Shown here piece after piece: positions 1,452 through 41,335 of a stretch of 64,000 nucleotides of DNA (its first letter is position 1; each line of letters begins with the position of its first letter). Source of the stretch: an uncultured Gammaproteobacteria bacterium (lineage in GTDB: Bacteria > Patescibacteriota > Microgenomatia > Levybacterales > UBA12049); assembly GCA_964483115.1 (NCBI GenBank), contig CAYZZF010000001.1, forward strand, positions 19,907-83,906, given 5' to 3'. The translations under genes were made by a program, and so were the position numbers. The notes below the pieces were generated by a model. That model worked only from the letters and a program-made list of their open reading frames with translations. It did not search any database and was not told where the DNA came from.

Positions 1452-2411
1452 ATGCATAAGGAACAAGAATCAAAAAAATCTAATAAAATTCTTAAAGTTA
1501 GTTCTTTAGGAGGTATTGTGCTAGCATTTAGCGCAATCATGTTCGGATCTACCGATAGAGAAGACAATAATGTATATCGTCCTTCAATCGTTATTACACC
1601 ATCAATTTCAGACTTAGACAAACCAAATGTAGAAGTTAGAAAGATGCCTACTCTGGATCCCCGTAATCTTTTAGGGCCGGATTCTTTGTTATCTCGTCCT
1701 CCAACTGAGTCTCCAGCCGAGATTCCCGCGGCGACCCCAACCGAAACCACTTCCTTGGAACTTAAATTAGATAGAATATCCAGTTTAATTTCTGATTTAT
1801 CAATAATTTTACCAAGAGCGGTAGAACCTTTAACCCCGGCTGAAGAACAAAATATTACGGATATTTTATCACGTTATTTTAACCTTAAGATTACCGCAGA
1901 ACTTGACGGGAAAAGATTAGACAGAAACTATGGTATTATTGGTAAAGAGCAACATCTTCCTCGTTACCCTGGAGACTCTATTGATACACATTTTGATAAT
2001 GAGGAAGATGTAAGACAATTCATGCAAGTTGATATGTCATCCAATCTGGGTGCATGGGGATATTTTGCTCCGTCCCGCGCACAAATGACCAAGCAGGATA
2101 GCGAGCGCGAAAAGTATTACATTGCAGTACAAACCTTTTTATCTCCCGGTTTTAATGAGCATGTTGCGGAATATTACAATTTTTTCAAATACAGAAAAAT
2201 ACTTGTTGTTAATCCCCAAAACGGGAAAGCTGTGGTTGCAGTAATTGGCGATTCCGGTCCTGCTACTTGGACAGGAAAACAGATTGGCGGTTCGCCGGAA
2301 GTTATGAGCTATTTGGAAAGATTGGATGGAGCGGAGCGCGGACCTGTTCTCTACTTTTTTGTTGATGATCCTCAGGACAAAGTGCCTCTAGGCCCAATTA
2401 CTACACAATAA
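1452..2411 (+). CDS. membrane-anchored/secreted protein with a Pro/Thr-rich linker and a C-terminal RlpA-like double-psi beta-barrel (lytic-transglycosylase/expansin-like) domain
   Basis: Has an N-terminal hydrophobic anchor and a PTESPAEIPAATPTETT linker. The C-terminus KILVVNPQNGKAVVAVIGDSGP...IGGSPEVMSYL matches the RlpA/DPBB core (V-N-x-NG-K-x-V-V-x-I-x-D-x-GP). There is an AAAGG Shine-Dalgarno 8 nt upstream of the ATG. Confidence 0.45.
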   Translation: MHKEQESKKSNKILKVSSLGGIVLAFSAIMFGSTDREDNNVYRPSIVITPSISDLDKPNVEVRKMPTLDPRNLLGPDSLLSRPPTESPAEIPAATPTETTSLELKLDRISSLISDLSIILPRAVEPLTPAEEQNITDILSRYFNLKITAELDGKRLDRNYGIIGKEQHLPRYPGDSIDTHFDNEEDVRQFMQVDMSSNLGAWGYFAPSRAQMTKQDSEREKYYIAVQTFLSPGFNEHVAEYYNFFKYRKILVVNPQNGKAVVAVIGDSGPATWTGKQIGGSPEVMSYLERLDGAERGPVLYFFVDDPQDKVPLGPITTQ

Positions 2412-2425
2412 CTATGAAGTTGTGA

Positions 2426-3370
2426 TTACTGTGCCTTTTGGAAAAAATCCCAGACCAGGTGGGTTAATTTATCCCCCAATTCATATCTGTCCGTATCATA
2501 CATATATATATCTTCTGCTTCATCAGATTGAGCCATAAAGCTAACAGCATATACTCCTTTTTCTGTAACAACTAAACCGGCATCAACTAAAATATTATCA
2601 AGCCAGCCGGGTTTATGGAAAACTTTTGCTTCATCTTCGAAATAAATTATTTTAACCGTGGGGAGTTGAGCATAGGAAAGAGCAAGTTCTGTAAACTCTT
2701 GAGAGAGAATTTCTCCTTGATAAAGTTTAATCCAAAATAAATTTAAGTCATTAGTTGTAGAATAGTTTTCTCCATAGCCCAAATAAGGATAGTCATCACT
2801 TCCGTCACTAAATCCATTATAAAAACCACTGTCCTGCATTCCCAACTGCGAAACAAAATTATGAAGTTTTTCAAGTCCAGTTTTCACGATTAACTCATCT
2901 GTTGCGGAATTGTCAGATTCTTCCATCATTTGTCTAATTAGAAAATCAATATTAGTGTCTAAAGCATAAAGTCCGACTTGCACATCTTTTAAAACTGAAG
3001 CAAGAACCAAGCTCTTAATTGCAGATGCCGGATAAAATTGTAAGTCCCCATTAATAGAAATTGATTCTTGACTATTCAGATCAGTAATAGAAATTGCCGC
3101 TGTTCCAGAAAACTGTTTAATCTCTTTTTGAAGATTATTTTTAAGTTCCTCCCATTCTCCGGTATTAAAGATTTCAAGTGGAGTAGATGAGGAGGACATT
3201 GGGTTTAACTCTGGAATTGACGTTGGAGTAACGATTGTAGGATAAGATACTCGTTTACTTTCTCTATCAGTACATCCAGATAAACCAGCAGTAGTTATCA
3301 GTACCAAGCTTCCTAAAAAAGAAGTAGTTTTAAATACTCTAGATTTTCTTGTTTCTTGCTCTTTAGACAT
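2426..3370 (-). CDS. class A beta-lactamase-fold serine hydrolase lipoprotein
   Basis: Signal peptide plus lipobox (LSGC). Carries the S-x-x-K motif (SAIKS), and the stretch MMEESDNSATDELIVKTGLEKLHNFVSQLGM aligns with the TEM SDN-loop region (MSDNTAANLLL...LTAFLHNMGD). A KPG triad stands in for KTG. Confidence 0.6.
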   Translation of the reverse strand: MSKEQETRKSRVFKTTSFLGSLVLITTAGLSGCTDRESKRVSYPTIVTPTSIPELNPMSSSSTPLEIFNTGEWEELKNNLQKEIKQFSGTAAISITDLNSQESISINGDLQFYPASAIKSLVLASVLKDVQVGLYALDTNIDFLIRQMMEESDNSATDELIVKTGLEKLHNFVSQLGMQDSGFYNGFSDGSDDYPYLGYGENYSTTNDLNLFWIKLYQGEILSQEFTELALSYAQLPTVKIIYFEDEAKVFHKPGWLDNILVDAGLVVTEKGVYAVSFMAQSDEAEDIYMYDTDRYELGDKLTHLVWDFFQKAQ

Positions 3371-3426: not shown

Positions 3427-4374
3427 TTATTTTATTCCTTCTCTCATTGTAATCATTTGCCAATTATTGGCATTTGCAGCTCCTATAATAGATGGAAGTG
3501 CAATTATATCATCAGGAATAGCATGTTGAAGAATAATGGTTCCTTGAAAAAAATTTTCAAATACGTTTCCAAGAATGTAGTTTATAGCGTCTTGATCAGT
3601 TCTTGGATATACTCGCCATCCGTTTGAATCTGAAGACCACATTGCAACCTTTAAACCTAGTTCCCCGCAAACTTTTAAAAGAAGAGGATTTTGATAGCCA
3701 AATATACCAGCACCGCCGGGTGGCCTTAAAAAGTACTGCCTGTAATCGCCCCCTACAGCTTCTTGTACAGCTTCTTGTTGTTTTAATATCTGATATCTTA
3801 TTTCATCTTCTGAAATATTTTCTAGCCATTCATGACTCCATGTATGATTTTCAATTGCATGCCCTTGCGCAACAGCTCTTTTATAGAGTTCTGGAGCAAA
3901 TCCTATAGTTCTACCGACTGGGTAGAATGTAAGATGTACATTATATTTTTGAGCAACATCAAGAGCTTGTTCTACTTGTGCGGGGTCCCAACCGTCATCA
4001 ATGGTAAGATATATTTGAGGTTTGTCTGCATTCCCTCTCCATACCACCTCTGCCGGTTTTGGTACTTCGATAGAAGCCGTGGGTTCGGGGGTAGGTTCTG
4101 GTATTGGTGTAGATTTAGGAGTAGAAGTTGATTCTGGAGTAGGTGATGGTTCTGGTGTTTTTGGCATAAGTTCCGAAATAGAAGTTGGTGTAGAAGCAAA
4201 AGGAGGTGCTTGATTACGACCTAGAAGTGGGTTAGGTGCATCTGGCTTTTCTGGCATGCCACAAGCGATTGTTATCAATCCTATACTTGTCGAGAGCGCA
4301 CCTTTTAAAATTTGTCGCCTAGAAAACTGCCGATTAAATATAAAGGTTTTTCGAATTTCTTTGTTGTTGCCCAT
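3427..4374 (-). CDS. polysaccharide deacetylase (CE4/NodB domain) lipoprotein with a Tat-type signal and a Pro/Thr linker
   Basis: NodB motifs TIDDG, HTWSH and LRPPGG. Leader contains SRRQILKG (twin-arginine motif) and ITIACG. Linker is TPEPSPTPESTSTPKSTPIPEPTPEPT. I chose the internal ATG at 4372-4374 because the longer ORF starts with TTG at 4416. Confidence 0.75.
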   Translation of the reverse strand: MGNNKEIRKTFIFNRQFSRRQILKGALSTSIGLITIACGMPEKPDAPNPLLGRNQAPPFASTPTSISELMPKTPEPSPTPESTSTPKSTPIPEPTPEPTASIEVPKPAEVVWRGNADKPQIYLTIDDGWDPAQVEQALDVAQKYNVHLTFYPVGRTIGFAPELYKRAVAQGHAIENHTWSHEWLENISEDEIRYQILKQQEAVQEAVGGDYRQYFLRPPGGAGIFGYQNPLLLKVCGELGLKVAMWSSDSNGWRVYPRTDQDAINYILGNVFENFFQGTIILQHAIPDDIIALPSIIGAANANNWQMITMREGIK

Positions 4375-4522: not shown

Positions 4523-5755
4523 ATGAAAAAAGAACGTAATTCTTCAGTTAAAAATTCTACTATTCCAGAAAACCTTTACAGGTCTAAGTTTTTAGAAGCT
4601 GTAAAGATTGTTTCCGACTCAAAAAATAAACTAGGTTTTATGCGCAAATTGGCAATTAGAGCCGCTATTTTGGCTCCAGCCTTTCTCTATGCTGCCTGTG
4701 CTGCAAGAGGCAATAACGATGAGGATTCTTTACCAAAATCATTCGCGAGTAATATCCCAAACGCAGCAAGTATTTTTGAGCCATCTCCTAGTCCAACTTT
4801 TGAAATCGTTTCTACACCAACTCCAACACCTGAATTAACTCTTGAGCCGACTCCACAACCAATCCCAAGTCCTACTCCTGAGCCAACGTTAGAGCCAACC
4901 CCAGAACCACCACAGGTTGATCTAAGTATTTGTCAACCCCAAGATACAAAGAAGGAAGGAACGCTCTATGTTACACCCAATATAGGTGTTAAAAAGAGAG
5001 TTTTTCCTTCTTTAGACTCGGTTTTTAATGGAGGAACTGCTTTAAATACAGAGCTTCTAATTGAATGTGAGAGAGATACCGATGGAGGGGTATGGTTTAG
5101 AGTTAATAGTTCTTACGGGGAATTTTGGATATCACAGCTTTATACAAGCAATGAACCGGTTTCAGTTCCGACACAGACGACATACACAGTACCACCAGAT
5201 AATTCCCGGTCGGAAATTAGACCAGGTGACGGCAACAAGATTATTCTGACATTTGATGATTCAGGGATGATGGAACAGATACTTGATATCTTAGACAGTT
5301 ACGGTGCCAAAGCCATTTTCTTCCCTACAGGTGACTATGCGAACAGTGTGCCCGATATTATACAGCGAGCCGAAAAAGAAGGCCATCTTGTCTGTAATCA
5401 CACAAAAGATCACGCAGATTTAACAACGCTTTCAGGTGAAGGAGTAAAGGAGGAAATTTTAGGTGGTGCTGGTGTGGGCGAATGTAATTTTCTTAGGCCT
5501 CCGTACGGGGCACACAATAATTTTGTTGATTCTATTGCAGAGAGTCTTGGTTATACAATTTTTATGTGGGATATAGATACAATGGATTGGGCAAGGCGCT
5601 ATCCCGGTGGTGATCAAGAGATTTTGAATATTGCATTATCCCAAGCTTATCCGGGTGCTGTCATATTGATGCACATGCACGTTCCTAATACAATAATTGC
5701 GCTTCCAGCAATACTTAAGGGATTAAAAGATGCTGGCTACGAATTACATTGGTAA
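4523..5755 (+). CDS. polysaccharide deacetylase (CE4/NodB domain) with a Pro/Thr linker and an SH3b-like middle domain
   Basis: NodB motifs LTFDDSG, HTKDHAD and LRPPYGA. Linker is TPTPTPELTLEPTPQPIPSPTPEPTLEPTPEPP. Hydrophobic leader ends in YAAC. An alternative start at the Met at 4640 (MRKLAIRAAIL) is possible. Confidence 0.75.
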   Translation: MKKERNSSVKNSTIPENLYRSKFLEAVKIVSDSKNKLGFMRKLAIRAAILAPAFLYAACAARGNNDEDSLPKSFASNIPNAASIFEPSPSPTFEIVSTPTPTPELTLEPTPQPIPSPTPEPTLEPTPEPPQVDLSICQPQDTKKEGTLYVTPNIGVKKRVFPSLDSVFNGGTALNTELLIECERDTDGGVWFRVNSSYGEFWISQLYTSNEPVSVPTQTTYTVPPDNSRSEIRPGDGNKIILTFDDSGMMEQILDILDSYGAKAIFFPTGDYANSVPDIIQRAEKEGHLVCNHTKDHADLTTLSGEGVKEEILGGAGVGECNFLRPPYGAHNNFVDSIAESLGYTIFMWDIDTMDWARRYPGGDQEILNIALSQAYPGAVILMHMHVPNTIIALPAILKGLKDAGYELHW

Positions 5756-32834: not shown

Positions 32835-34568
32835 TTACTCAAGTTTAGTAATAAATGTAACACAAAACTTCTTTTCAGGTAGATCTTCTACATTAAAATC
32901 ACTAAGAGATAAATTTTCAGGGTATCTTCTAAAATTATATTTACTACATATTTTATCGTTAAATATTTTATAAATCTCTCCTCCATCTGAAAGTCTTGCA
33001 ATAGTTAAATTTTTTGCCGTTTTATCTACTGTCTTACAATTAAAGTCACGCTCGGCAATTAGGACAGTATTTTTTTCTAATTTTTTTGGGCATGAACCAA
33101 AGACAACGTTATCATATCTGAATTGGTAGTTATTTATATTTTGTGCTATTAAATTTGCACTTTTTGAATTGTAGTTATTGGTATAGAATAAATACTGTCT
33201 AAAAAGAGAAGGAATTATTTTGCTGTTTTTGTTTGTTAAAACGAATACTTTTTGTCCATTATTTTCTGCAGACTTAATGTATTTTGAAACTACTCTGTTT
33301 GAAAAACCAAAGCCTTCAGAATTGTAGACTGGATTTCTAAATAAATATATATACATAAAATTGGCAACAGACAGAGAATAAAAAATGATCAATAACAGAG
33401 TTATTGTCCTTTTATATTTAGCAATAGTTTGGGAGTCTAAAAAATACCATATTCCAAAACCTGTAATAATTATTAAAAAAGGAAACGCAAGAGATGACCT
33501 TATTGGGTAGGATGTTCCAACATTGCTTAAAACAGACGGTAAAGGTGTGATTAGGAGCATACTAAGGAAAAGAAAAAAAACTTCTTTATATTTTCTGTAA
33601 AGCCCATAGAATCCTATAATCAAGAAAATTATATCAAGGTAATAAAACATTCCATGATTCCAGATAGAGAAAGTAGATCTTGAATCACCATATGAAAACA
33701 AAAATTGACTAGAATAAAAGCCTAAGAATTTATTTATGGAATCCTGACTAATCAATGTTAATTTATTTGAAAATAAATTGCTTAGCGGATTTTCTATTGT
33801 GTTTTTTCTTGCTTCATTCACAGCTTGTGCTGTCTTGCCGAGATTTAAAATGCTTATCTCAGACAGTCTTGCAGATGTAGCCGTGCGCATAGAAACAAAG
33901 AAATAAAAAATAGTAGCTAAAGACAAGAGGAGTACAATGACATATTGGAAAGTATACTTCTTTTTATAAATATATTTCCAGACAAACAGTATTGCAATGA
34001 TGACAAATGGTATAAATATAATTTTTGTACCGATATAAGTATAAAATCCCAAGAATAGAAAAGGGAAGGAAAAAATAATTTTCCAGCCTTTTTTTATCAA
34101 TAAGATATAAAAACTTAATAAGAAAAAGAATACAGCCAGAGGTGCATCAAAAGAGGTTCTACCAAAGTATATAGACCAAGGATTAATTGCTGCAACAAGA
34201 CCAATTATAAATGCCTGTTTTTCTCCAAACAGTCTTTTTCCTACTAAATATAAAACAATTATCAGTAAAACACTAGATAATGCATAAGGAAAACGCGCGG
34301 CTAAAAGAGAAAAATTTAAAGCCCCTATAAAAGGAGCAATTAAGATATAAGGTAATTCGGCTTTTGGGTTTTCATAGGGAGGAATAGTAAGCGAAAAAGG
34401 AGACCATGTTTGACTGATGTCTTTTCCTGTTAAGAATATTGATTTGGCATTCAATATATAATCTAGTTCATCGTCACTTATTCCAATTGGAATTCTGTCT
34501 AGTAAAGATAGGCGAAGAACTAAAGAAAGGGAAATTATTGCAAAAAGAGGGAGAAATTTAATTTTCAT
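32835..34568 (-). CDS. GT-C membrane glycosyltransferase (ArnT/PMT-like)
   Basis: GISDDELDY DE-motif. Polytopic. Confidence 0.5.
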   Translation of the reverse strand: MKIKFLPLFAIISLSLVLRLSLLDRIPIGISDDELDYILNAKSIFLTGKDISQTWSPFSLTIPPYENPKAELPYILIAPFIGALNFSLLAARFPYALSSVLLIIVLYLVGKRLFGEKQAFIIGLVAAINPWSIYFGRTSFDAPLAVFFFLLSFYILLIKKGWKIIFSFPFLFLGFYTYIGTKIIFIPFVIIAILFVWKYIYKKKYTFQYVIVLLLSLATIFYFFVSMRTATSARLSEISILNLGKTAQAVNEARKNTIENPLSNLFSNKLTLISQDSINKFLGFYSSQFLFSYGDSRSTFSIWNHGMFYYLDIIFLIIGFYGLYRKYKEVFFLFLSMLLITPLPSVLSNVGTSYPIRSSLAFPFLIIITGFGIWYFLDSQTIAKYKRTITLLLIIFYSLSVANFMYIYLFRNPVYNSEGFGFSNRVVSKYIKSAENNGQKVFVLTNKNSKIIPSLFRQYLFYTNNYNSKSANLIAQNINNYQFRYDNVVFGSCPKKLEKNTVLIAERDFNCKTVDKTAKNLTIARLSDGGEIYKIFNDKICSKYNFRRYPENLSLSDFNVEDLPEKKFCVTFITKLE

Positions 34569-34616
34569 TCGTTTTTAATTATGATATCATACTAATGTTG
34601 TTTATTTCCAAACTTT

Positions 34617-36302
34617 GTGAAGAGAACTAATTTTATCTTAATTTTTATTATTATAGTAGCCGCTTTTTTACGCTTTTATCAACTTGGGACAAATCCTCCT
34701 TCATTGACCTGGGATGAAGTGGCCTGGGGATATAATGCTTACTCTTTGGGACTTGATGGGAAAGATGAATTTGACAGATTTTTACCCGTTGATTATTTAG
34801 AGTCATTTGGGGATTTTAAGCCTCCTGTTTATGCATATCTAGATGTCATTCCGATAAAATTATTTGGACTCACCACCTTTGCGGTGAGATTCCCCTCTGC
34901 TTTTTTTGGCGTTCTTACGGTTTTACTAACTTATTTTTTGGTAAAAAGAATATTCTATAATTCAAAAAATAAAGAACTTTATGCTTTATTCTCCACTTTT
35001 ATTCTTGCAATATCTCCTTGGCATATTTTGCTCTCTCGTGCGGCATTTGAGGCAAACGTTGCATCATTTTTCATCGTAATGGGCATGTTTCTTTTTTTCA
35101 AGGCAATATCTCAAGGTGTAGCCTCTATATCACCTCGGAGGTGGGGTTATATTTACACCTTAGGATTTTTTCTTATCTTGTCTGTTATCTCTTTTATTCT
35201 TTCTATGTATACTTTTAGCACCGCAAGAATTATTGCTCCTCTTTTAATTATAATTTTAGCAGTAGGTTTTAGAAAAGAGCTTCTTTCGCGAAAAAAAGAA
35301 ATAGCTCTTGCAATTATTCTCGGATTTTTTTTGCTATTGCCACTTATAAATTTTTTATTTACACCAGCTGCAAGTCTTAGGTTTAGAGAGGTAAATATTT
35401 TTTCCGATATAGCTGTTATTGAGAATACAAATCAGGAAATTACCAATGATAATGATGCTATTTGGTCAAAAGTAATTCACAATAGACGCTTTGCTTATGC
35501 TGTATCTTATTTCAGACATTATTTTGATAATTTAAGTCCAAGCTTTCTTTTTATAAAAGGAGATGGAAATCCTAAGTTTTCAACTCAAACAGTTGGAGAA
35601 ATGTACTTATGGGATTTGCCATTTTTCATTGTTGGTGTTTTTCTGCTTATTAAAAGAAAAGAAGGCAATTGGTGGATTATTCCCGCTTGGCTTATCTTAG
35701 GAATAATTCCTGCCGCGACTGCTCGTGAAACCCCCCATGCTTTAAGAATCGAAGCAACACTTCCGACTTTCCAAACCATAACCGCAATTGGAGTAAGTTC
35801 GTTTATAATCTGGATAAAGAATCTAAGACTAAAAAAATATTTTAAATCTTTAATTGTCATTTTTATATTTTCATTTTTAATTTTTAATTTTGTATATTTT
35901 TATCATGATTATTTTGCGCATTATTCAAGAATTTATTCGGGAGAATGGCAGTATGGATACAGAGATTCAATTGAGTATGTAAAAAGCGTTCAAAATCAAT
36001 ATGACGAAATCCGCATTACAAATAAATTGGGAAGACCATATATATATTATCTATTTTATACAAATACAAACCCTAAGATATTTAGAAAAACTGCACAAAT
36101 TAAAAGAGATTCTTTTGGATTTGTGACCATCCGCGGATTTTCTAAATATCGTTTTTCGGACAGTCTTTTGTCAATAAAAGATAAAGCAAGGAGAGTCCTT
36201 TATATCGATATTCCAGCAAGAGTTCCAAAAAAAGTAGAGATTTTGAAATCGTTTTACTTACTTAACGGAGAGAAAATGCTGGTTGCCTATAGAGAAAATT
36301 GA
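34617..36302 (+). CDS. GT-C membrane glycosyltransferase (ArnT/PMT_2-like), first of three tandem paralogs
   Basis: GTNPPSLTWDEVAWGYNAYSL...DEFDRFLPV...FKPPVYAYL. GTG start. Confidence 0.6.
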   Translation: MKRTNFILIFIIIVAAFLRFYQLGTNPPSLTWDEVAWGYNAYSLGLDGKDEFDRFLPVDYLESFGDFKPPVYAYLDVIPIKLFGLTTFAVRFPSAFFGVLTVLLTYFLVKRIFYNSKNKELYALFSTFILAISPWHILLSRAAFEANVASFFIVMGMFLFFKAISQGVASISPRRWGYIYTLGFFLILSVISFILSMYTFSTARIIAPLLIIILAVGFRKELLSRKKEIALAIILGFFLLLPLINFLFTPAASLRFREVNIFSDIAVIENTNQEITNDNDAIWSKVIHNRRFAYAVSYFRHYFDNLSPSFLFIKGDGNPKFSTQTVGEMYLWDLPFFIVGVFLLIKRKEGNWWIIPAWLILGIIPAATARETPHALRIEATLPTFQTITAIGVSSFIIWIKNLRLKKYFKSLIVIFIFSFLIFNFVYFYHDYFAHYSRIYSGEWQYGYRDSIEYVKSVQNQYDEIRITNKLGRPYIYYLFYTNTNPKIFRKTAQIKRDSFGFVTIRGFSKYRFSDSLLSIKDKARRVLYIDIPARVPKKVEILKSFYLLNGEKMLVAYREN

Positions 36303-38026
36303 TGTTTGGGTTGAAAATGAATAAAAAAATTGTTTATCTTTGTCTTTTTTTGATTATTATTACTGCCTCAATATTAAGATTATGGCAGTTAGGAAATGTT
36401 CCGCCTTCTCCAGATTGGGATGAGGCTGCTCTTGGGTATAATGCATATTCGATTTTACATACAGGCCGCGACGAGTATGGAAAGTTATTGCCGATTGTAC
36501 TTAGGTCATTTGATGATTATAAGCCTGCTTTATATGCATATTTAGTCATTCCATTTATCAAAATAATTGGTCTAAATGTAGTCGCGGTAAGATTACCTTC
36601 AGTAATCTTTGGCATACTGACTGTTATTGCAACATATTTCTTGGTTAAAGAATTACTCGGCGAAAAACTCAAAGCTCAAAATGCAAATCTCAAAATTGTA
36701 ACTCAAAACTCAAAAGTTGAACCACTTGCTCTTTTAACAGCGTTTTTACTTGCAATTTCTCCCTGGCACATCCAATTTTCAAGAATTGCGTTCGAATCAA
36801 ATGTTGGTCTTGCATTTAATGTTTTCTTTGTATTTTTCTTTCTCAAAGGTCTTAAAAAACCATGGTTGCTTATTTTATCTGCTTTCTTTATGGGAATAAA
36901 TATATATGTCTATCAGAGTGAAAAAGTTTTTACCCCGCTTTTACTTTTAGCGCTTGTCGTGATATTTAGAAAAGAGCTTTTTTCTATTCCTAAAAAATAT
37001 ATTATTTATGCAGTAGTTATTGGTATTTTGGTGTTTTTACCAATGGCAGGATATATCATTAGCAACAAAAACGTTTTTGAAAGAGCGCAAGGAGTCAGTA
37101 TCTTTGCAGAGTCCTCACAGCTTTTGGAAGAAAATTCTAAAAAACTTCTTGTTGATAGGCAAAACAATGATTTCTTAGGTCTCATACTAGATAACCGCCG
37201 TATCGTTTTTGCCAAAGAGATTATATCAGGATATGTTTCGCACTTTAATCTTAATTGGCTTTTTATAACTGGTGATATTGCAAGGCATCATGCTCCTAAT
37301 ATGGGACTTTTGTATCTTTTCGAATTACCATTCTTGTTTGTTGGTATCTATGAGTTGATTTTTGGTAAGTTTGATAAAAAAATAAAGTTTTTAATATTTT
37401 CGTGGTTTCTTATTGCACCTATACCAGCGTCAATTACAAGTGGAGTGCCTCATGCGGTTAGGTCCCTCAATTTTCTTCCCATGTTCCAAATATTTATAGC
37501 ATTAGGAATAGTTAGCAGTATTGCTTTAATTTCAAATTTTAAATTTAAAATTTTAAATTTTAAAATATGGAAACTATTTGCTATTTGCTATTTGCTATTT
37601 GCTATTTTTAATTTTTTATATTATTTAGACCAATATTTTGTTCAGCTTAATTATTTTAACTCAAAAGATTGGCAGTATGGCTATAAACAAACAATAGATA
37701 CCGTTAAGCAGATAGAAGTAAAATATAAAAAAATTATTGTATCTAACCAGCCATATTTAGATCAGTCTTATATGTTTTTTCTCTTTTACTTAAAATACCC
37801 ACCCGAATTGTATCAGAAAGAATCAAAATTTGCTTCTGGGGGTTTTAGAGAAAATCATAAATTTGGAAAATTTGAATTTAGGCCATTTAATTTTGAAAAT
37901 GAAAAAGAAACAGAAGTTTTGTATATAGGAAGACCGCTTGATTTTCCGCAAAATGACTTAGGACAAGTAAAAACCATAAATTTTTTAGATGGAACTCCGG
38001 CAATAAAAATGGTTGAAAGATTATGA
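36299..38026 (+). CDS. GT-C membrane glycosyltransferase (ArnT/PMT_2-like), second tandem paralog
   Basis: GNVPPSPDWDEAALGYNAYSIL...DEYGKLLPI...YKPALYAYL. Carries a degenerate heptamer tract plus (AAATTTT)x4 and (CTATTTG)x4 tracts. Confidence 0.6.
   Translation: MMFGLKMNKKIVYLCLFLIIITASILRLWQLGNVPPSPDWDEAALGYNAYSILHTGRDEYGKLLPIVLRSFDDYKPALYAYLVIPFIKIIGLNVVAVRLPSVIFGILTVIATYFLVKELLGEKLKAQNANLKIVTQNSKVEPLALLTAFLLAISPWHIQFSRIAFESNVGLAFNVFFVFFFLKGLKKPWLLILSAFFMGINIYVYQSEKVFTPLLLLALVVIFRKELFSIPKKYIIYAVVIGILVFLPMAGYIISNKNVFERAQGVSIFAESSQLLEENSKKLLVDRQNNDFLGLILDNRRIVFAKEIISGYVSHFNLNWLFITGDIARHHAPNMGLLYLFELPFLFVGIYELIFGKFDKKIKFLIFSWFLIAPIPASITSGVPHAVRSLNFLPMFQIFIALGIVSSIALISNFKFKILNFKIWKLFAICYLLFAIFNFLYYLDQYFVQLNYFNSKDWQYGYKQTIDTVKQIEVKYKKIIVSNQPYLDQSYMFFLFYLKYPPELYQKESKFASGGFRENHKFGKFEFRPFNFENEKETEVLYIGRPLDFPQNDLGQVKTINFLDGTPAIKMVERL
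36665..36714 (+). repeat. degenerate 7-nt periodic tract (aaactca aagctca aaatgca aatctca aaattgt aactcaa aactcaa) in the GT-C gene at 36299
   Basis: Read directly. Confidence 0.75.
37534..37608 (+). repeat. two adjacent heptamer tracts, (AAATTT[T/A])x4 then (CTATTTG)x4 plus one variant unit, in-frame in the GT-C gene at 36299
   Basis: aaatttt aaattta aaatttt aaatttt ... ctatttg x4 ctatttt. Encodes FKILNFKIWKLFAICYLLFAIF. Confidence 0.9.
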
Positions 38027-39714
38027 GAAATCTTAAGATTCTTTTTCTTTTAAGTATTATTCTTTTGGCCGTATTCTTACGTTTTTATAAATTAAATACC
38101 GTTCCACCGAGTGCCTCTTTAGACGAGGCAAGCATTGGTTTTAATGCTTACTCAATTCTTCAAACAGGAGAGGATGAGTACGGATATAAATTTCCCATTC
38201 TTCTCAGAGCTTACGATGATTGGCGCCCTGCGCTTTACGTTTATCTTGTCATTCCATTTGTAAAAATTTTTGGTCTTGATGCTATATCGGTGCGCTTACC
38301 TTCGGTGATTCTTTCAGTTCTAACTATTTTAGCAACTTATTTTTTGGTAAAAAAACTTTTTAAACTCAAAACTCAAAACTCAAAACTCAAAAATACAATT
38401 CAAAATTCAAAAGAATCAGAAATTAGTAGTTTGAGATTAGAAATTTTAGCTTTGCTTTCAATAGGATTGTTCGCGATATCCCCATTGAGTGTATATATTT
38501 CAAGACTTGGCCACGAAGCAAATCTAGGACTATTTTTTGTTGTTTTTGGAATTTTATTTTTTCTGCTTTCGCAAAGAAAAAAAACGTTTCTTATTCTTTC
38601 TGCAATTTTTTTTGCTCTATCTTTATATTCATATCAGAGTGAAAAAATATTTGCCCCGCTTATAGTTATTGCTCTGGGTATTATATACAGAAAAGAGCTT
38701 TATAAGATAAAAAAAACTCTTTTACTATCTATTGTTATAGGATTATTAATTTCGATTCCAATTTTAGCTGCTTCTTTTTCTCCGCAAGCGCTTATTAGAT
38801 TTAAAGGAACCAGCGCATTTGATGCTTCTAATCCTTTATATAGTCAAAGCGCAAAACGTCTTCTTATAAGTCGGCAGAAGAGCGATATTATTGGTGAGGT
38901 TCTAAACAATAGACGAATAACAAGCGTATATATTTTTATTTCCCAATATTTTTCAAATTTTAATCCGCAATGGATTTTTGAGAATCGTGGAAACGAATCA
39001 TTTAAAGCGCCAGGAGTTGGACTTTTATATTTTTGGGAGGCTCCGTTTCTTTTGGTTGGGATATTTTCCCTTTTCAAAAATAAATATTCATCAAAGACAA
39101 AAGCTGTTGTCGCTTCTTGGGCTCTAATAGCTTTTGTTGCTCCTTCTATAACAACTCAAGCCCCTCATGCTATGAGATCTTACAATGTATTGCCAATACC
39201 TCAGATTTTGATTGGCCTTGGGATCCTTGAAATGGGTAAATTCTTCCCTAAAAAGCTTGGAATTATTTTGCTTGCCATTTTAGTGGTTTCTCAACTTTAC
39301 TACTTCTTTAATCAATATTTTTTTGTTTTTCCAAGAACGGAATCATCTTCATTTCAATATGCTTTATCAAATGTAATGCCTTATGTTTCTAGAGTCAAAA
39401 ATAAATATAAAACTGTTGTAATTTCAAATAGGGATAACTTATACCAATCTTATATGTTTTATCTTTTTTATACTAGATATAAGCCAACATTGTATTTAGG
39501 AAACGGAGGTACTGTATCTGGCGGATTTGCTCAAACGCATAAAATTGACAATCTTTTGTTTAAGCCCATTTCTTTTAAAGATAATGCAATAGAAGGGAAA
39601 ACCCTTTATGTAGGTAATCCTTCGGATTTTCCAAAATCCGAAGCTAGTCTTCTTATGTTTGAAAACCTTGATGGAAAACCTGCCGTAGAAGTGGTATCAA
39701 AAAATGAAAATTAA
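38023..39714 (+). CDS. GT-C membrane glycosyltransferase (ArnT/PMT_2-like), third tandem paralog
   Basis: NTVPPSASLDEASIGFNAYSIL...DEYGYKFPI...WRPALYVYL. Carries an (AAACTCA)x4 tract. Confidence 0.6.
   Translation: MRNLKILFLLSIILLAVFLRFYKLNTVPPSASLDEASIGFNAYSILQTGEDEYGYKFPILLRAYDDWRPALYVYLVIPFVKIFGLDAISVRLPSVILSVLTILATYFLVKKLFKLKTQNSKLKNTIQNSKESEISSLRLEILALLSIGLFAISPLSVYISRLGHEANLGLFFVVFGILFFLLSQRKKTFLILSAIFFALSLYSYQSEKIFAPLIVIALGIIYRKELYKIKKTLLLSIVIGLLISIPILAASFSPQALIRFKGTSAFDASNPLYSQSAKRLLISRQKSDIIGEVLNNRRITSVYIFISQYFSNFNPQWIFENRGNESFKAPGVGLLYFWEAPFLLVGIFSLFKNKYSSKTKAVVASWALIAFVAPSITTQAPHAMRSYNVLPIPQILIGLGILEMGKFFPKKLGIILLAILVVSQLYYFFNQYFFVFPRTESSSFQYALSNVMPYVSRVKNKYKTVVISNRDNLYQSYMFYLFYTRYKPTLYLGNGGTVSGGFAQTHKIDNLLFKPISFKDNAIEGKTLYVGNPSDFPKSEASLLMFENLDGKPAVEVVSKNEN
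38362..38410 (+). repeat. (AAACTCA)x4 perfect plus three degenerate units, in-frame in the GT-C gene at 38023
   Basis: aaactca x4 then aaaatac aattcaa aattcaa. Encodes KLKTQNSKLKNTIQNSK. Confidence 0.95.
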
Positions 39715-41335
39715 GTATTTAATTTTTCTTATATTGCTTTGTGTTATCCCTATAATCTCGTTATTCCACAGCGGATTGCCAATTACTCATGATGGACAGG
39801 ATCATGTGGCAAGAATTGCCAATTTTTATCAAAATTTAAAAGAAGGTGTAATTATTCCTCGCTGGGCGGGAAATCTAAATTGGGGATATGGCCATCCTAT
39901 TTTGGAGTTTTTGTATCCGCTCCCATCATATATCGCATCCCTGTTCCATTTTATAGGATTTTCTTTGGTTGATTCTACAAAGATAGTTTTTGGCCTTTCT
40001 ATGGTTTCGTCTTTGATATTTATGTACTTGTGGTTATCCTCTTTTCTTTCAAGGAATTCTGCTATTTTAGGCGCAGTTTTATATGCTTATGCACCTTATA
40101 GATTTGTCGACCTTTATGTAAGAGGAGACATAGGTGAGAATTTAGCTTTTGCATTTATTCCATTAGTTCTCCTTTTTATTTATAGAATTTCTAAAGAAAA
40201 AAATTTCAATAATGTTCTTTTTGGAGGGATATCTCTTGCCTTTCTAATTCTTTCCCACAACGCAGTAAGCCTTATATTTATACCGTTTATCCTTTTTTAT
40301 ACACTTTTTTTAATCGCAAAAGATAAAAACAGAAAAAGAAAACTTATTTACTATTATACTATTATATTAGTATTAGGTTTTGCTTTATCTGCCTTTTTTT
40401 GGATTCCAGGTCTTTTTGAAGCAAAATACACACTTAGAAATATTGTAACAAAAGGCGCGTATTTAGAAAGATTTGTAAATTTAAAAGATTTAATTTACGG
40501 TTCATGGAAATACGACATCACAGGTCAATTTACCGTTCAAGTTGGAATCATCAATTGGTTATCATTAATAGTTTCTCCAATTGTTGGATTTTATCTTTAC
40601 AAAAAAACCAATAAGGATTATATATTAATCTTGGGTCTTATTATTTATACTCTTATTGCTATATTTTTGATGCTTCCTGTCTCTAACTTTATTTGGTCAA
40701 GAATTATGCTTTTGCAAAACTTTCAATTTCCCTGGCGATTTTTGGCAATAACTATTTTTACAACTGCTGTTCTAGGAGCTTTTTTTGTTTCACTTATTCC
40801 TCAAAAATTTCAGATTTGGTTTTCGCTAGTTCTTATAGCTTTGATTTTGATTCTTAGTAAAGATTACATAAAGCCTAAAGGATATCTTTATAAACCAGAA
40901 AGTTTTTACACAGGAATTTATAAGGGAACTACAGATACAGGTGAGAGTGCACCAATTTGGTCTGTGAGATTTATGGAAAAAGAGCCAAAAGCGCATCTGG
41001 AAGTAGTGGATGGCGAGGCTAAAATAACAGAGATAAAAAGAACCTCAATTTATCACGAGTATAAGATAGCGGCAAGAAAGAAAACGATGTTTTTGGAGAA
41101 TACTTTATATTTTCCGGGTTGGCAAATAATTGCCAACAACAATCCTGTACAAATCGAATTTCAAAATCCACAATATAGAGGGCTTATGACTTTTGTTCTT
41201 GGAAAAGGCAATTATAAATTAGCGGTTCTTTATAAAGAAACAAAAGTAAGAGCTTTTGCAGATGCTATTTCTATAGTGGTATTTTTAAATATTTTGGGAC
41301 TCTTTACTTTTAAGTTTGTAAAAGTTAAATTTTAA
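39704..41335 (+). CDS. polytopic membrane protein, GT-C-like family A, paralog 3
   Basis: LFHSGLPITHDGQDHVARIANF...GVIIPRWAGNLNWGYGHP plus the C-terminal tail motif. Confidence 0.5.
   Translation: MKIKYLIFLILLCVIPIISLFHSGLPITHDGQDHVARIANFYQNLKEGVIIPRWAGNLNWGYGHPILEFLYPLPSYIASLFHFIGFSLVDSTKIVFGLSMVSSLIFMYLWLSSFLSRNSAILGAVLYAYAPYRFVDLYVRGDIGENLAFAFIPLVLLFIYRISKEKNFNNVLFGGISLAFLILSHNAVSLIFIPFILFYTLFLIAKDKNRKRKLIYYYTIILVLGFALSAFFWIPGLFEAKYTLRNIVTKGAYLERFVNLKDLIYGSWKYDITGQFTVQVGIINWLSLIVSPIVGFYLYKKTNKDYILILGLIIYTLIAIFLMLPVSNFIWSRIMLLQNFQFPWRFLAITIFTTAVLGAFFVSLIPQKFQIWFSLVLIALILILSKDYIKPKGYLYKPESFYTGIYKGTTDTGESAPIWSVRFMEKEPKAHLEVVDGEAKITEIKRTSIYHEYKIAARKKTMFLENTLYFPGWQIIANNNPVQIEFQNPQYRGLMTFVLGKGNYKLAVLYKETKVRAFADAISIVVFLNILGLFTFKFVKVKF

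Follow-up and report, generated by a model that had tools for sequence, protein, structure and literature searches.

The DNA analysed here is a 64,000-nt stretch of contig CAYZZF010000001.1 (hereafter the window), in which two convergent genes, which we call A and B, lie near the 5' end with their stop codons separated by 14 nt. Each gene opens with a leader of 56 codons, and the two leaders are homologous to one another, whereas the enzyme bodies that follow them are unrelated. This arrangement was also recovered in two independent Logan assemblies, with 0-1 mismatches. The genes and the parts of their leaders are as follows.

1452..2411, + strand: open reading frame (ORF) A, 319 aa
2426..3370, - strand: ORF B, 314 aa
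1452..1619, + strand: leader of A, codons 1-56, with n-region MHKEQESKKSNK, core VSSLGGIVLAFSAIMFG, Ser33 and tether TDREDNNVYRPSIVITPSISDLD
3203..3370, - strand: leader of B, codons 1-56, with n-region MSKEQETRKSR, hydrophobic core, lipobox L-S-G-C33 and tether TDRESKRVSYPTIVTPTSIPELN
1548..1550, + strand: Ser33 codon TCT of A, one transversion from TGT (Cys33) in B
3272..3274, - strand: Cys33 codon TGT of B, the predicted lipidation site

Homologous leaders on two convergent genes

A preliminary description of the locus had proposed that A and B carry paralogous N-terminal leaders in front of unrelated catalytic domains, and both parts of that proposal hold. By BLASTP, the alignment of the two proteins is confined to residues 1-56, of which 25 of 56 are identical (45% at the amino-acid level, E=2e-9), placing the extent of the leader at 56 residues and leaving the bodies without detectable kinship. 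The Smith-Waterman score of the leader pair is 104, compared with a mean of 21.2 and a standard deviation of 4.2 for shuffled sequences, and none of 2000 shuffles reached it. In a six-frame tblastn search of the window, each leader matched the other at E=1e-9, with the next best match at E=0.09. At the DNA level, the leaders are 64% identical over 168 ungapped nt, about equally at all three codon positions, and a repeat search independently returned the pair as inverted repeats in two blocks, 1451-1482/3340-3371 (81% identity) and 1545-1619/3203-3277 (73%). Each leader reads through into its enzyme body in frame and without a stop; at the given composition, a run of 58 codons would be free of stops with a probability of about 0.014. 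Because the BLASTP match, the shuffle scores, the DNA blocks and the open in-frame reading all exceed chance, the similarity is true homology and not the chance likeness of two signal peptides. Signal peptides do share composition, and other leader pairs in the neighbourhood reach p ~0.01-0.1, as a chance or convergent likeness of two ordinary signal peptides would have it; however, the score lies about 20 standard deviations above the shuffles, the DNA blocks are 73-81% identical with synonymous positions included, and the similarity runs 23 residues past the cleavage site. Refuted by the BLASTP result, the shuffle test and the DNA repeat blocks, a chance origin retains next to no credibility.

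The homology extends from the ATG to near codon 57. The DNA 5' of the two start codons is not alignable, similarity being lost immediately upstream, so that the genes share neither promoter nor 5' untranslated region; a promoter scan was uninformative, with 12 matches against 7.3±2.9 in shuffles.

The geometry of the pair, with leaders that form inverted repeats bracketing exactly the two bodies, fits a second explanation, in which the leaders are the arms of an invertible segment that swaps the pairing of body with promoter and leader. Mycoplasma lipoprotein loci provide known examples of such shufflon or phase-variation systems. The arms here, however, are just 64% identical overall, their longest block being 32 nt at 81%; no recombinase gene occurs within 8 kb upstream or in the window; a start codon and a complete leader are already present on both genes; and the two assemblies show the same orientation. 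With diverged arms, no recombinase and a single orientation, site-specific inversion was rejected, and we consider it extremely improbable.

Judged from its sequence, the leader combines a signal peptide of the Sec/lipoprotein type with a tether of ~23 residues behind it, and A no longer has the lipidation site. Both copies share a basic n-region of the pattern M-x-KEQE-x-x-KS, in which K3 supplies a Lys or Arg within the first 7 residues ahead of an uncharged hydrophobic stretch, and a hydrophobic core of 17-18 residues; the Kyte-Doolittle maximum over 15 residues is reached at residues 16-30 in A (2.01) and at residues 18-32 in B (1.62). Beyond position 33, both continue as TDRE…P(S/T)IVxTP(S/T)SIx(D/E)L. 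Under a lipobox rule of the PROSITE PS51257 type, [LIVMFWSTAG]2-[LIVMFYSTAGCQ]-[AGS]-Cys with the Cys at positions 15-35, B is a predicted lipoprotein (…TAGLSG-C33, with C33 the sole Cys of the protein), and it resembles bacterial lipoprotein signal peptides for signal peptidase II in its Lys/Arg-rich n-region, its core, its L-S-G-C33 and its disordered tether. The leader differs from such signal peptides in the length of its n-region, about 15 residues. A differs further: it reads MFG-S33 at the corresponding place and has zero Cys in the whole protein, so that it is not classed as a lipoprotein and lipidation would not be possible. Judged by eye, A is also without a good small-x-small site for signal peptidase I. 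In an AlphaFold2 model of A, the predicted local distance difference test score (pLDDT) is <50 for leader residues 2-56.

The leader is restricted to this pair. A HMMER profile built from the two leaders, run against 1.84 billion representative proteins, found only A (P0001) and B (P0121), at E~1e-32; an extra match, P0123, proved on inspection to be a spurious repeat protein. A back-translated leader scan of JGI metagenome contigs returned no relative, and six-frame scans of the window, of 6.8 kb upstream and of all fetched relative loci returned no third copy. A wider leader family was rejected on these profile, metagenome and six-frame searches. The preliminary description had named, as grounds for setting its idea aside, that the leaders might be ordinary low-complexity signal peptides with no conservation beyond the pair: conservation does stop at the pair, but the leaders are not low-complexity look-alikes.

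Enzyme bodies and their families

Three further features make up the remainder of the two proteins.

1620..1751, + strand: Pro/Thr/Ser/Glu-rich linker of A, ~residues 57-100, delimited by alignments, pLDDT 46-64
1752..2411, + strand: conserved body of A, two helices followed by a predicted RlpA-like double-psi beta-barrel (DPBB)
2426..3202, - strand: body of B, predicted to be a divergent class A beta-lactamase-fold serine hydrolase

The AlphaFold2 model of A, made with 120 homologues and confident from residue 110, predicts a double-psi beta-barrel fold for the body. The closest proteins to it are RlpA-like DPBB proteins, namely PA4485 of P. aeruginosa, fungal loosenin, expansin domain 1, kiwellin and cerato-platanin. 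Compared with these, A has an extra helical and beta N-terminal subdomain and lacks a sequence match to PF03330 or to any other Pfam or NCBIfam model, the Pfam search having been taken to E<=10; a 120-sequence profile likewise gave no meaningful sequence match in the PDB. The earlier assignment of A as RlpA-like thus stands at the level of the fold but not of sequence. Family-invariant His, Asp and Glu residues in A are H168, D175, H180, E220 and D267.

A has 4712 homologues in the database, every named one annotated as hypothetical, which form a Patescibacteria family without a Pfam model. Their alignment with A begins only at about residue 100, and the linker has no counterpart either in them or in B. 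Three A-family proteins, at the loci L010, L011 and L015 (CAZSUZ010000005.1, CAYSZW010000002.1 and CAZOSM010000003.1), are 61-64% identical to A; the titles of their metagenome-assembled genomes, 'uncultured Gammaproteobacteria bacterium', look taxonomically wrong, the family otherwise being from Patescibacteria in every named case.

We compared N-termini across 119 retrieved relatives out of the 4712. At the start of all 119 stands a positively charged stretch of ~45 conserved residues, HYxxLKxKWxxRHKxLQxxLWxKHKDSLxWL, with a transmembrane helix, LAVGSLGGLxLL, behind it, and not one has a lipobox. Directly 3' of the A-family gene, on the same strand, a conserved gene for a protein of 96-109 aa was present in 5/5 relatives checked, at the following positions.

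L004, 6925-7248: A-family partner gene
L006, 6894-7220: A-family partner gene
L008, 7002-7292: A-family partner gene
L019, 3917-4243: A-family partner gene
L020, 3961-4290: A-family partner gene

The partner protein (~100 aa) is helical, has no signal sequence and is apparently cytoplasmic, with the consensus …HxxILDxxLxELxxxDKxxFLxxLxxxDHxKIWxxLxxKxENIEEKIKKTA…. Because the partner gene recurs and the N-terminal cytoplasmic helix of the A family is conserved, the two proteins together suggest a transmembrane module of two genes, so far uncharacterised, in the cell-wall biology of Microgenomates. Neither part of this context accompanies A: the partner gene was not found in the window, no remnant of the canonical N-terminus occurs upstream of A or elsewhere in the window, and the window holds no second copy of A or of B. 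Since the relatives have a different N-terminus and a partner, both absent from the window, the N-terminus of A has here been replaced and the location of the gene is derived. The preliminary description had taken the leader for a shuffled targeting or anchoring module; movement between genes is borne out by the 119 differing relatives, but with no third carrier the leader is not a wider module.

The body of B matches PF13354 (Beta-lactamase2) at 106.5 bits, above a cut-off of 22 (E=1.6e-30), in agreement with the class A beta-lactamase fold first proposed for it. Its motifs, S116-A-I-K119, S152-D-N154 and K253-P-G255, are invariant between B and its relative P0122. The PDB matches include the beta-lactamase 4ewf (1.6e-7) and PBP-A Tll2115 of Thermosynechococcus; with the latter, B has in common the PF13354 match and the SxxK, SDN and K-x-G motifs. 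It differs from class A beta-lactamase-fold penicillin-binding proteins such as Tll2115 in its third motif, KPG in place of KTG/KSG, in a shortened all-alpha region and in scoring 40.9 bits against the 200 set as the curated class A cut-off (NCBIfam NF033103). B is most aptly seen as a divergent serine hydrolase of the beta-lactamase fold that may act as a peptidoglycan peptidase.

The B family is rare, with 7 members from a two-sequence profile. Three relatives have lipobox signals of their own, P0122 (…LLFGC), re-extended P0124 in locus L016 (…AVFGC) and P0128 (…ITSC), and in loci L016 and L018 the B-family genes adjoin Polysacc_deac_1 genes, as B does in the window. Because its relatives have lipobox signals and deacetylase neighbours, the leader type and the location of B look ancestral. 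In L016 (1261-2274), the database start of P0124 is 56 codons late, and upstream extension to MGSKERLFSLIALAGLGTSAVFGC… yields a typical lipoprotein signal; the ORF is divergent to an orthologue of the 410-aa deacetylase of the window, the two deacetylases having the C-terminus …LKDAGYELHW in common. In L018 (1983-4041), two tandem Beta-lactamase2 genes of the B family directly follow a Polysacc_deac_1 gene; local B paralogues therefore exist and could have donated the leader.

Surroundings of the pair and constraint on the leader

The window has a low GC content (30-37% in 4-kb bins), and the named homologues of its proteins belong to Candidatus Levybacteria and other Patescibacteria. On the 5' side of A and B are genes for MgtE, Lon, MarR, two YknX-like membrane fusion proteins and a major facilitator superfamily pump. 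On the 3' side are two lipoprotein-like peptidoglycan/polysaccharide deacetylases and then ~55 kb of surface-glycan biosynthesis genes.

3427..4374, - strand: polysaccharide/peptidoglycan deacetylase adjoining B, with an RR-containing lipoprotein-like signal (…LITIAC) and a P/T-rich tether
4523..5755, + strand: second deacetylase, with a lipobox-like LYAAC and a P/T-rich tether; its orthologue adjoins the B-family gene in L016

The glycan region (5800-62131) is nearly unbroken and for the most part on the + strand, and at ~55 kb it is unusually large for a small genome of the Candidate Phyla Radiation (CPR). It encodes many enzymes of glycosyltransferase (GT) families GT2 and GT4, together with 13 membrane glycosyltransferases of the GT-C type: seven PMT_2-like proteins, five of them contiguous at 32835-41335, three YfhO, two GT87 and one 1185-aa AftD-like protein with DUF5667 and CBM_4_9. 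Two Wzx-like flippases, RmlC/RmlD, epimerases and a DegT aminotransferase are also encoded.

Over its 56 codons, the leader pair shows a nonsynonymous divergence (dN) of 0.50 and a synonymous divergence (dS) of 0.50, a ratio of 0.97 with a 95% bootstrap interval of 0.45-2.09, so that constraint on the leader is far weaker than on ordinary proteins. This ratio gives no sign of a conserved motif for sorting or processing; the idea that the YPxIVxTPxSI box is one is unsupported, and the box has no carrier outside A and B. Divergence is uneven along the leader, with nucleotide identity of 76% in the n-region, 45% in the hydrophobic core and 73% in the lipobox and tether (Fisher p=0.0002). The core (1483-1544 vs 3278-3339) has dN 0.98 and dS 1.03, near saturation at both site classes, and two compensating one-codon indels probably shift its alignment. 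A mosaic history of the leader, for example by patchy gene conversion, is possible.

This unevenness is what one would expect if the leader, chiefly its post-lipobox part TDRE…P(S/T)IVxTP(S/T)SIx(D/E)L, were a dedicated sorting, processing or partner-docking signal that co-localises two peptidoglycan-active enzymes and has been kept similar by selection. Further support comes from the deacetylase next to B, whose tether at 4141-4203 (-), PFASTPTSISELMPKTPEPSP, echoes the PTIVTPTSIPELNPMSSSSTP of B with 10/21 residues identical. The core of the echo, TPTSISELMP in the deacetylase against TPTSIPELNP in B, is weak (tblastn E=0.09 in the window, shuffle p=0.013) and could reflect shared tether ancestry or mere P/T/S composition. 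In Borrelia, moreover, sorting information resides in the residues that come right behind the lipoprotein Cys (PMC10016077). Against a docking signal, no third carrier occurs among the 1.84e9 proteins or the metagenome contigs, P/T/S-rich tethers resemble one another in composition anyway, and the overall dN/dS is ~1. In the tether block itself, dN (0.36) is no smaller than dS (0.23), and the peptide motif therefore seems not to be selected. We accordingly hold such a signal to be improbable, and the same low odds apply to the proposal that the tether box TDRE-x4-5-P-S/T-I-V-x-T-P-S/T-S-I-x-D/E-L is a lineage-specific docking or sorting element beyond its role as a spacer. Were it correct, a DPBB glycan-binding or glycan-cleaving protein and a PBP-A-like peptidase would be held at one envelope site, and the swap would have rewired a normally cytoplasm-coupled DPBB protein into a peptidoglycan-remodelling cluster.

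Origin of the shared leader and its meaning

Taken as a whole, the leader is best read as a private, one-off swap of a 5' end and not as a new sorting signal. We infer that the leader was probably duplicated once, in this lineage only, when a B-type 5' end was fused to the body of A, and that it now heads two adjacent envelope enzymes. The likeliest donor would be B, the beta-lactamase-fold lipoprotein gene, or a lost paralogue of it, and the recipient the relocated catalytic body of the DPBB protein A, which in the process would have lost the cytoplasmic helix, the transmembrane anchor and the downstream cytoplasmic partner typical of its family. The residues 'FG' before position 33 in A also occur in P0122 (LFGC) and re-extended P0124 (VFGC).

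From its motif, we infer that B is exported by Sec, acylated by Lgt at C33, cleaved by LspA and anchored through its lipid, its tether keeping the enzyme at a distance from the membrane. A, with Ser for Cys, would remain unlipidated: its leader would probably act as an uncleaved N-in/C-out signal-anchor, or otherwise as a substrate of signal peptidase I. In either case the DPBB domain would end up outside the membrane, uncoupled from the cytoplasmic segment and partner of its relatives; a signal-anchor would reproduce the topology of those relatives without either.

Several observations weigh against this account. Sequence alone does not prove the direction of transfer, and no close relative of the genome is available by which to date the event. 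The leaders show no significant similarity to other B-family leaders (p=0.06-0.15 for B and 0.09-0.75 for A). The Pfam families of Lgt and LspA were not found among the ~45 window ORFs scanned, and lipoprotein processing is assumed. The better preservation of the n-region and the post-lipobox block than of the core, third positions included, may mean that the tether is under constraint. Lastly, KKSNKILKVSSLGGIVLA of A aligns to the canonical transmembrane segment of the A family at 6.4 bits, a weak hint in the opposite direction.

That hint bears on the reverse transfer, in which the leader of A would be its own canonical N-terminus, truncated and diverged in place, and B would have exchanged its original lipoprotein signal for a copy of it, gaining or regaining the lipobox Cys. 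Both KKSNKILKVSSLGGIVLA of A and FLGSLVLITT of B resemble the family's transmembrane segment (…NSKQLAVGSLGGLMLL(TT)); the 6.4 bits come from the full N-terminal profile, rank A at the top of 55 window ORFs and are exceeded by 2/500 shuffled A leaders; and MAFFT places the hydrophobic core of A on the same segment. When a profile of the transmembrane segment only was set against natural ORF segments, 1662 in all, however, neither A nor B came among the top 30, all at <1.3 bits, and the idea that the leader of A is a diverged canonical N-terminus was rejected once its weak signal was lost under that profile and null. Members of the B family are, moreover, lipoproteins themselves, so that B would have to lose a lipobox and regain it at the same place, and of the two genes it is A that lies outside its usual genomic surroundings. 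Reverse transfer is therefore unlikely, though less so than a docking function for the tether, and duplication of a B-type leader onto the body of A is the origin we favour.

Leaders set on unrelated bodies are a known pattern, best documented for the erp genes of Borrelia. In these (OspE/OspF/Elp, with a leader peptide called 'OspE/F-like'), a conserved lipoprotein leader precedes mature parts of independent origin (PMC10016077; PMC12242104), the leader and the first mature residues having likewise been joined to them by recombination. The Borrelia genes, however, occur as large multicopy families carried by prophage plasmids and share promoter/operator DNA, whereas the leader of A and B exists as two chromosomal copies with upstream DNA that is not alignable. 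The A and B copies also differ in being old, with dS ~0.5, and the many paralogues of the Erp type contrast with two carriers among 1.84e9 representative proteins.

The leader of A and B reveals no new targeting system. What it offers is a clean, datable case in which evolution resembling exon shuffling took place in a streamlined CPR genome: a member of a large uncharacterised DPBB family (~4700 proteins) would have taken the lipoprotein leader of its neighbour, the lipidation Cys of which is now mutated. For annotation, the lesson is that N-termini are an unsafe guide to function or family. The pair is also a natural experiment that sets the function of a lipoprotein leader against that of a signal-anchor.

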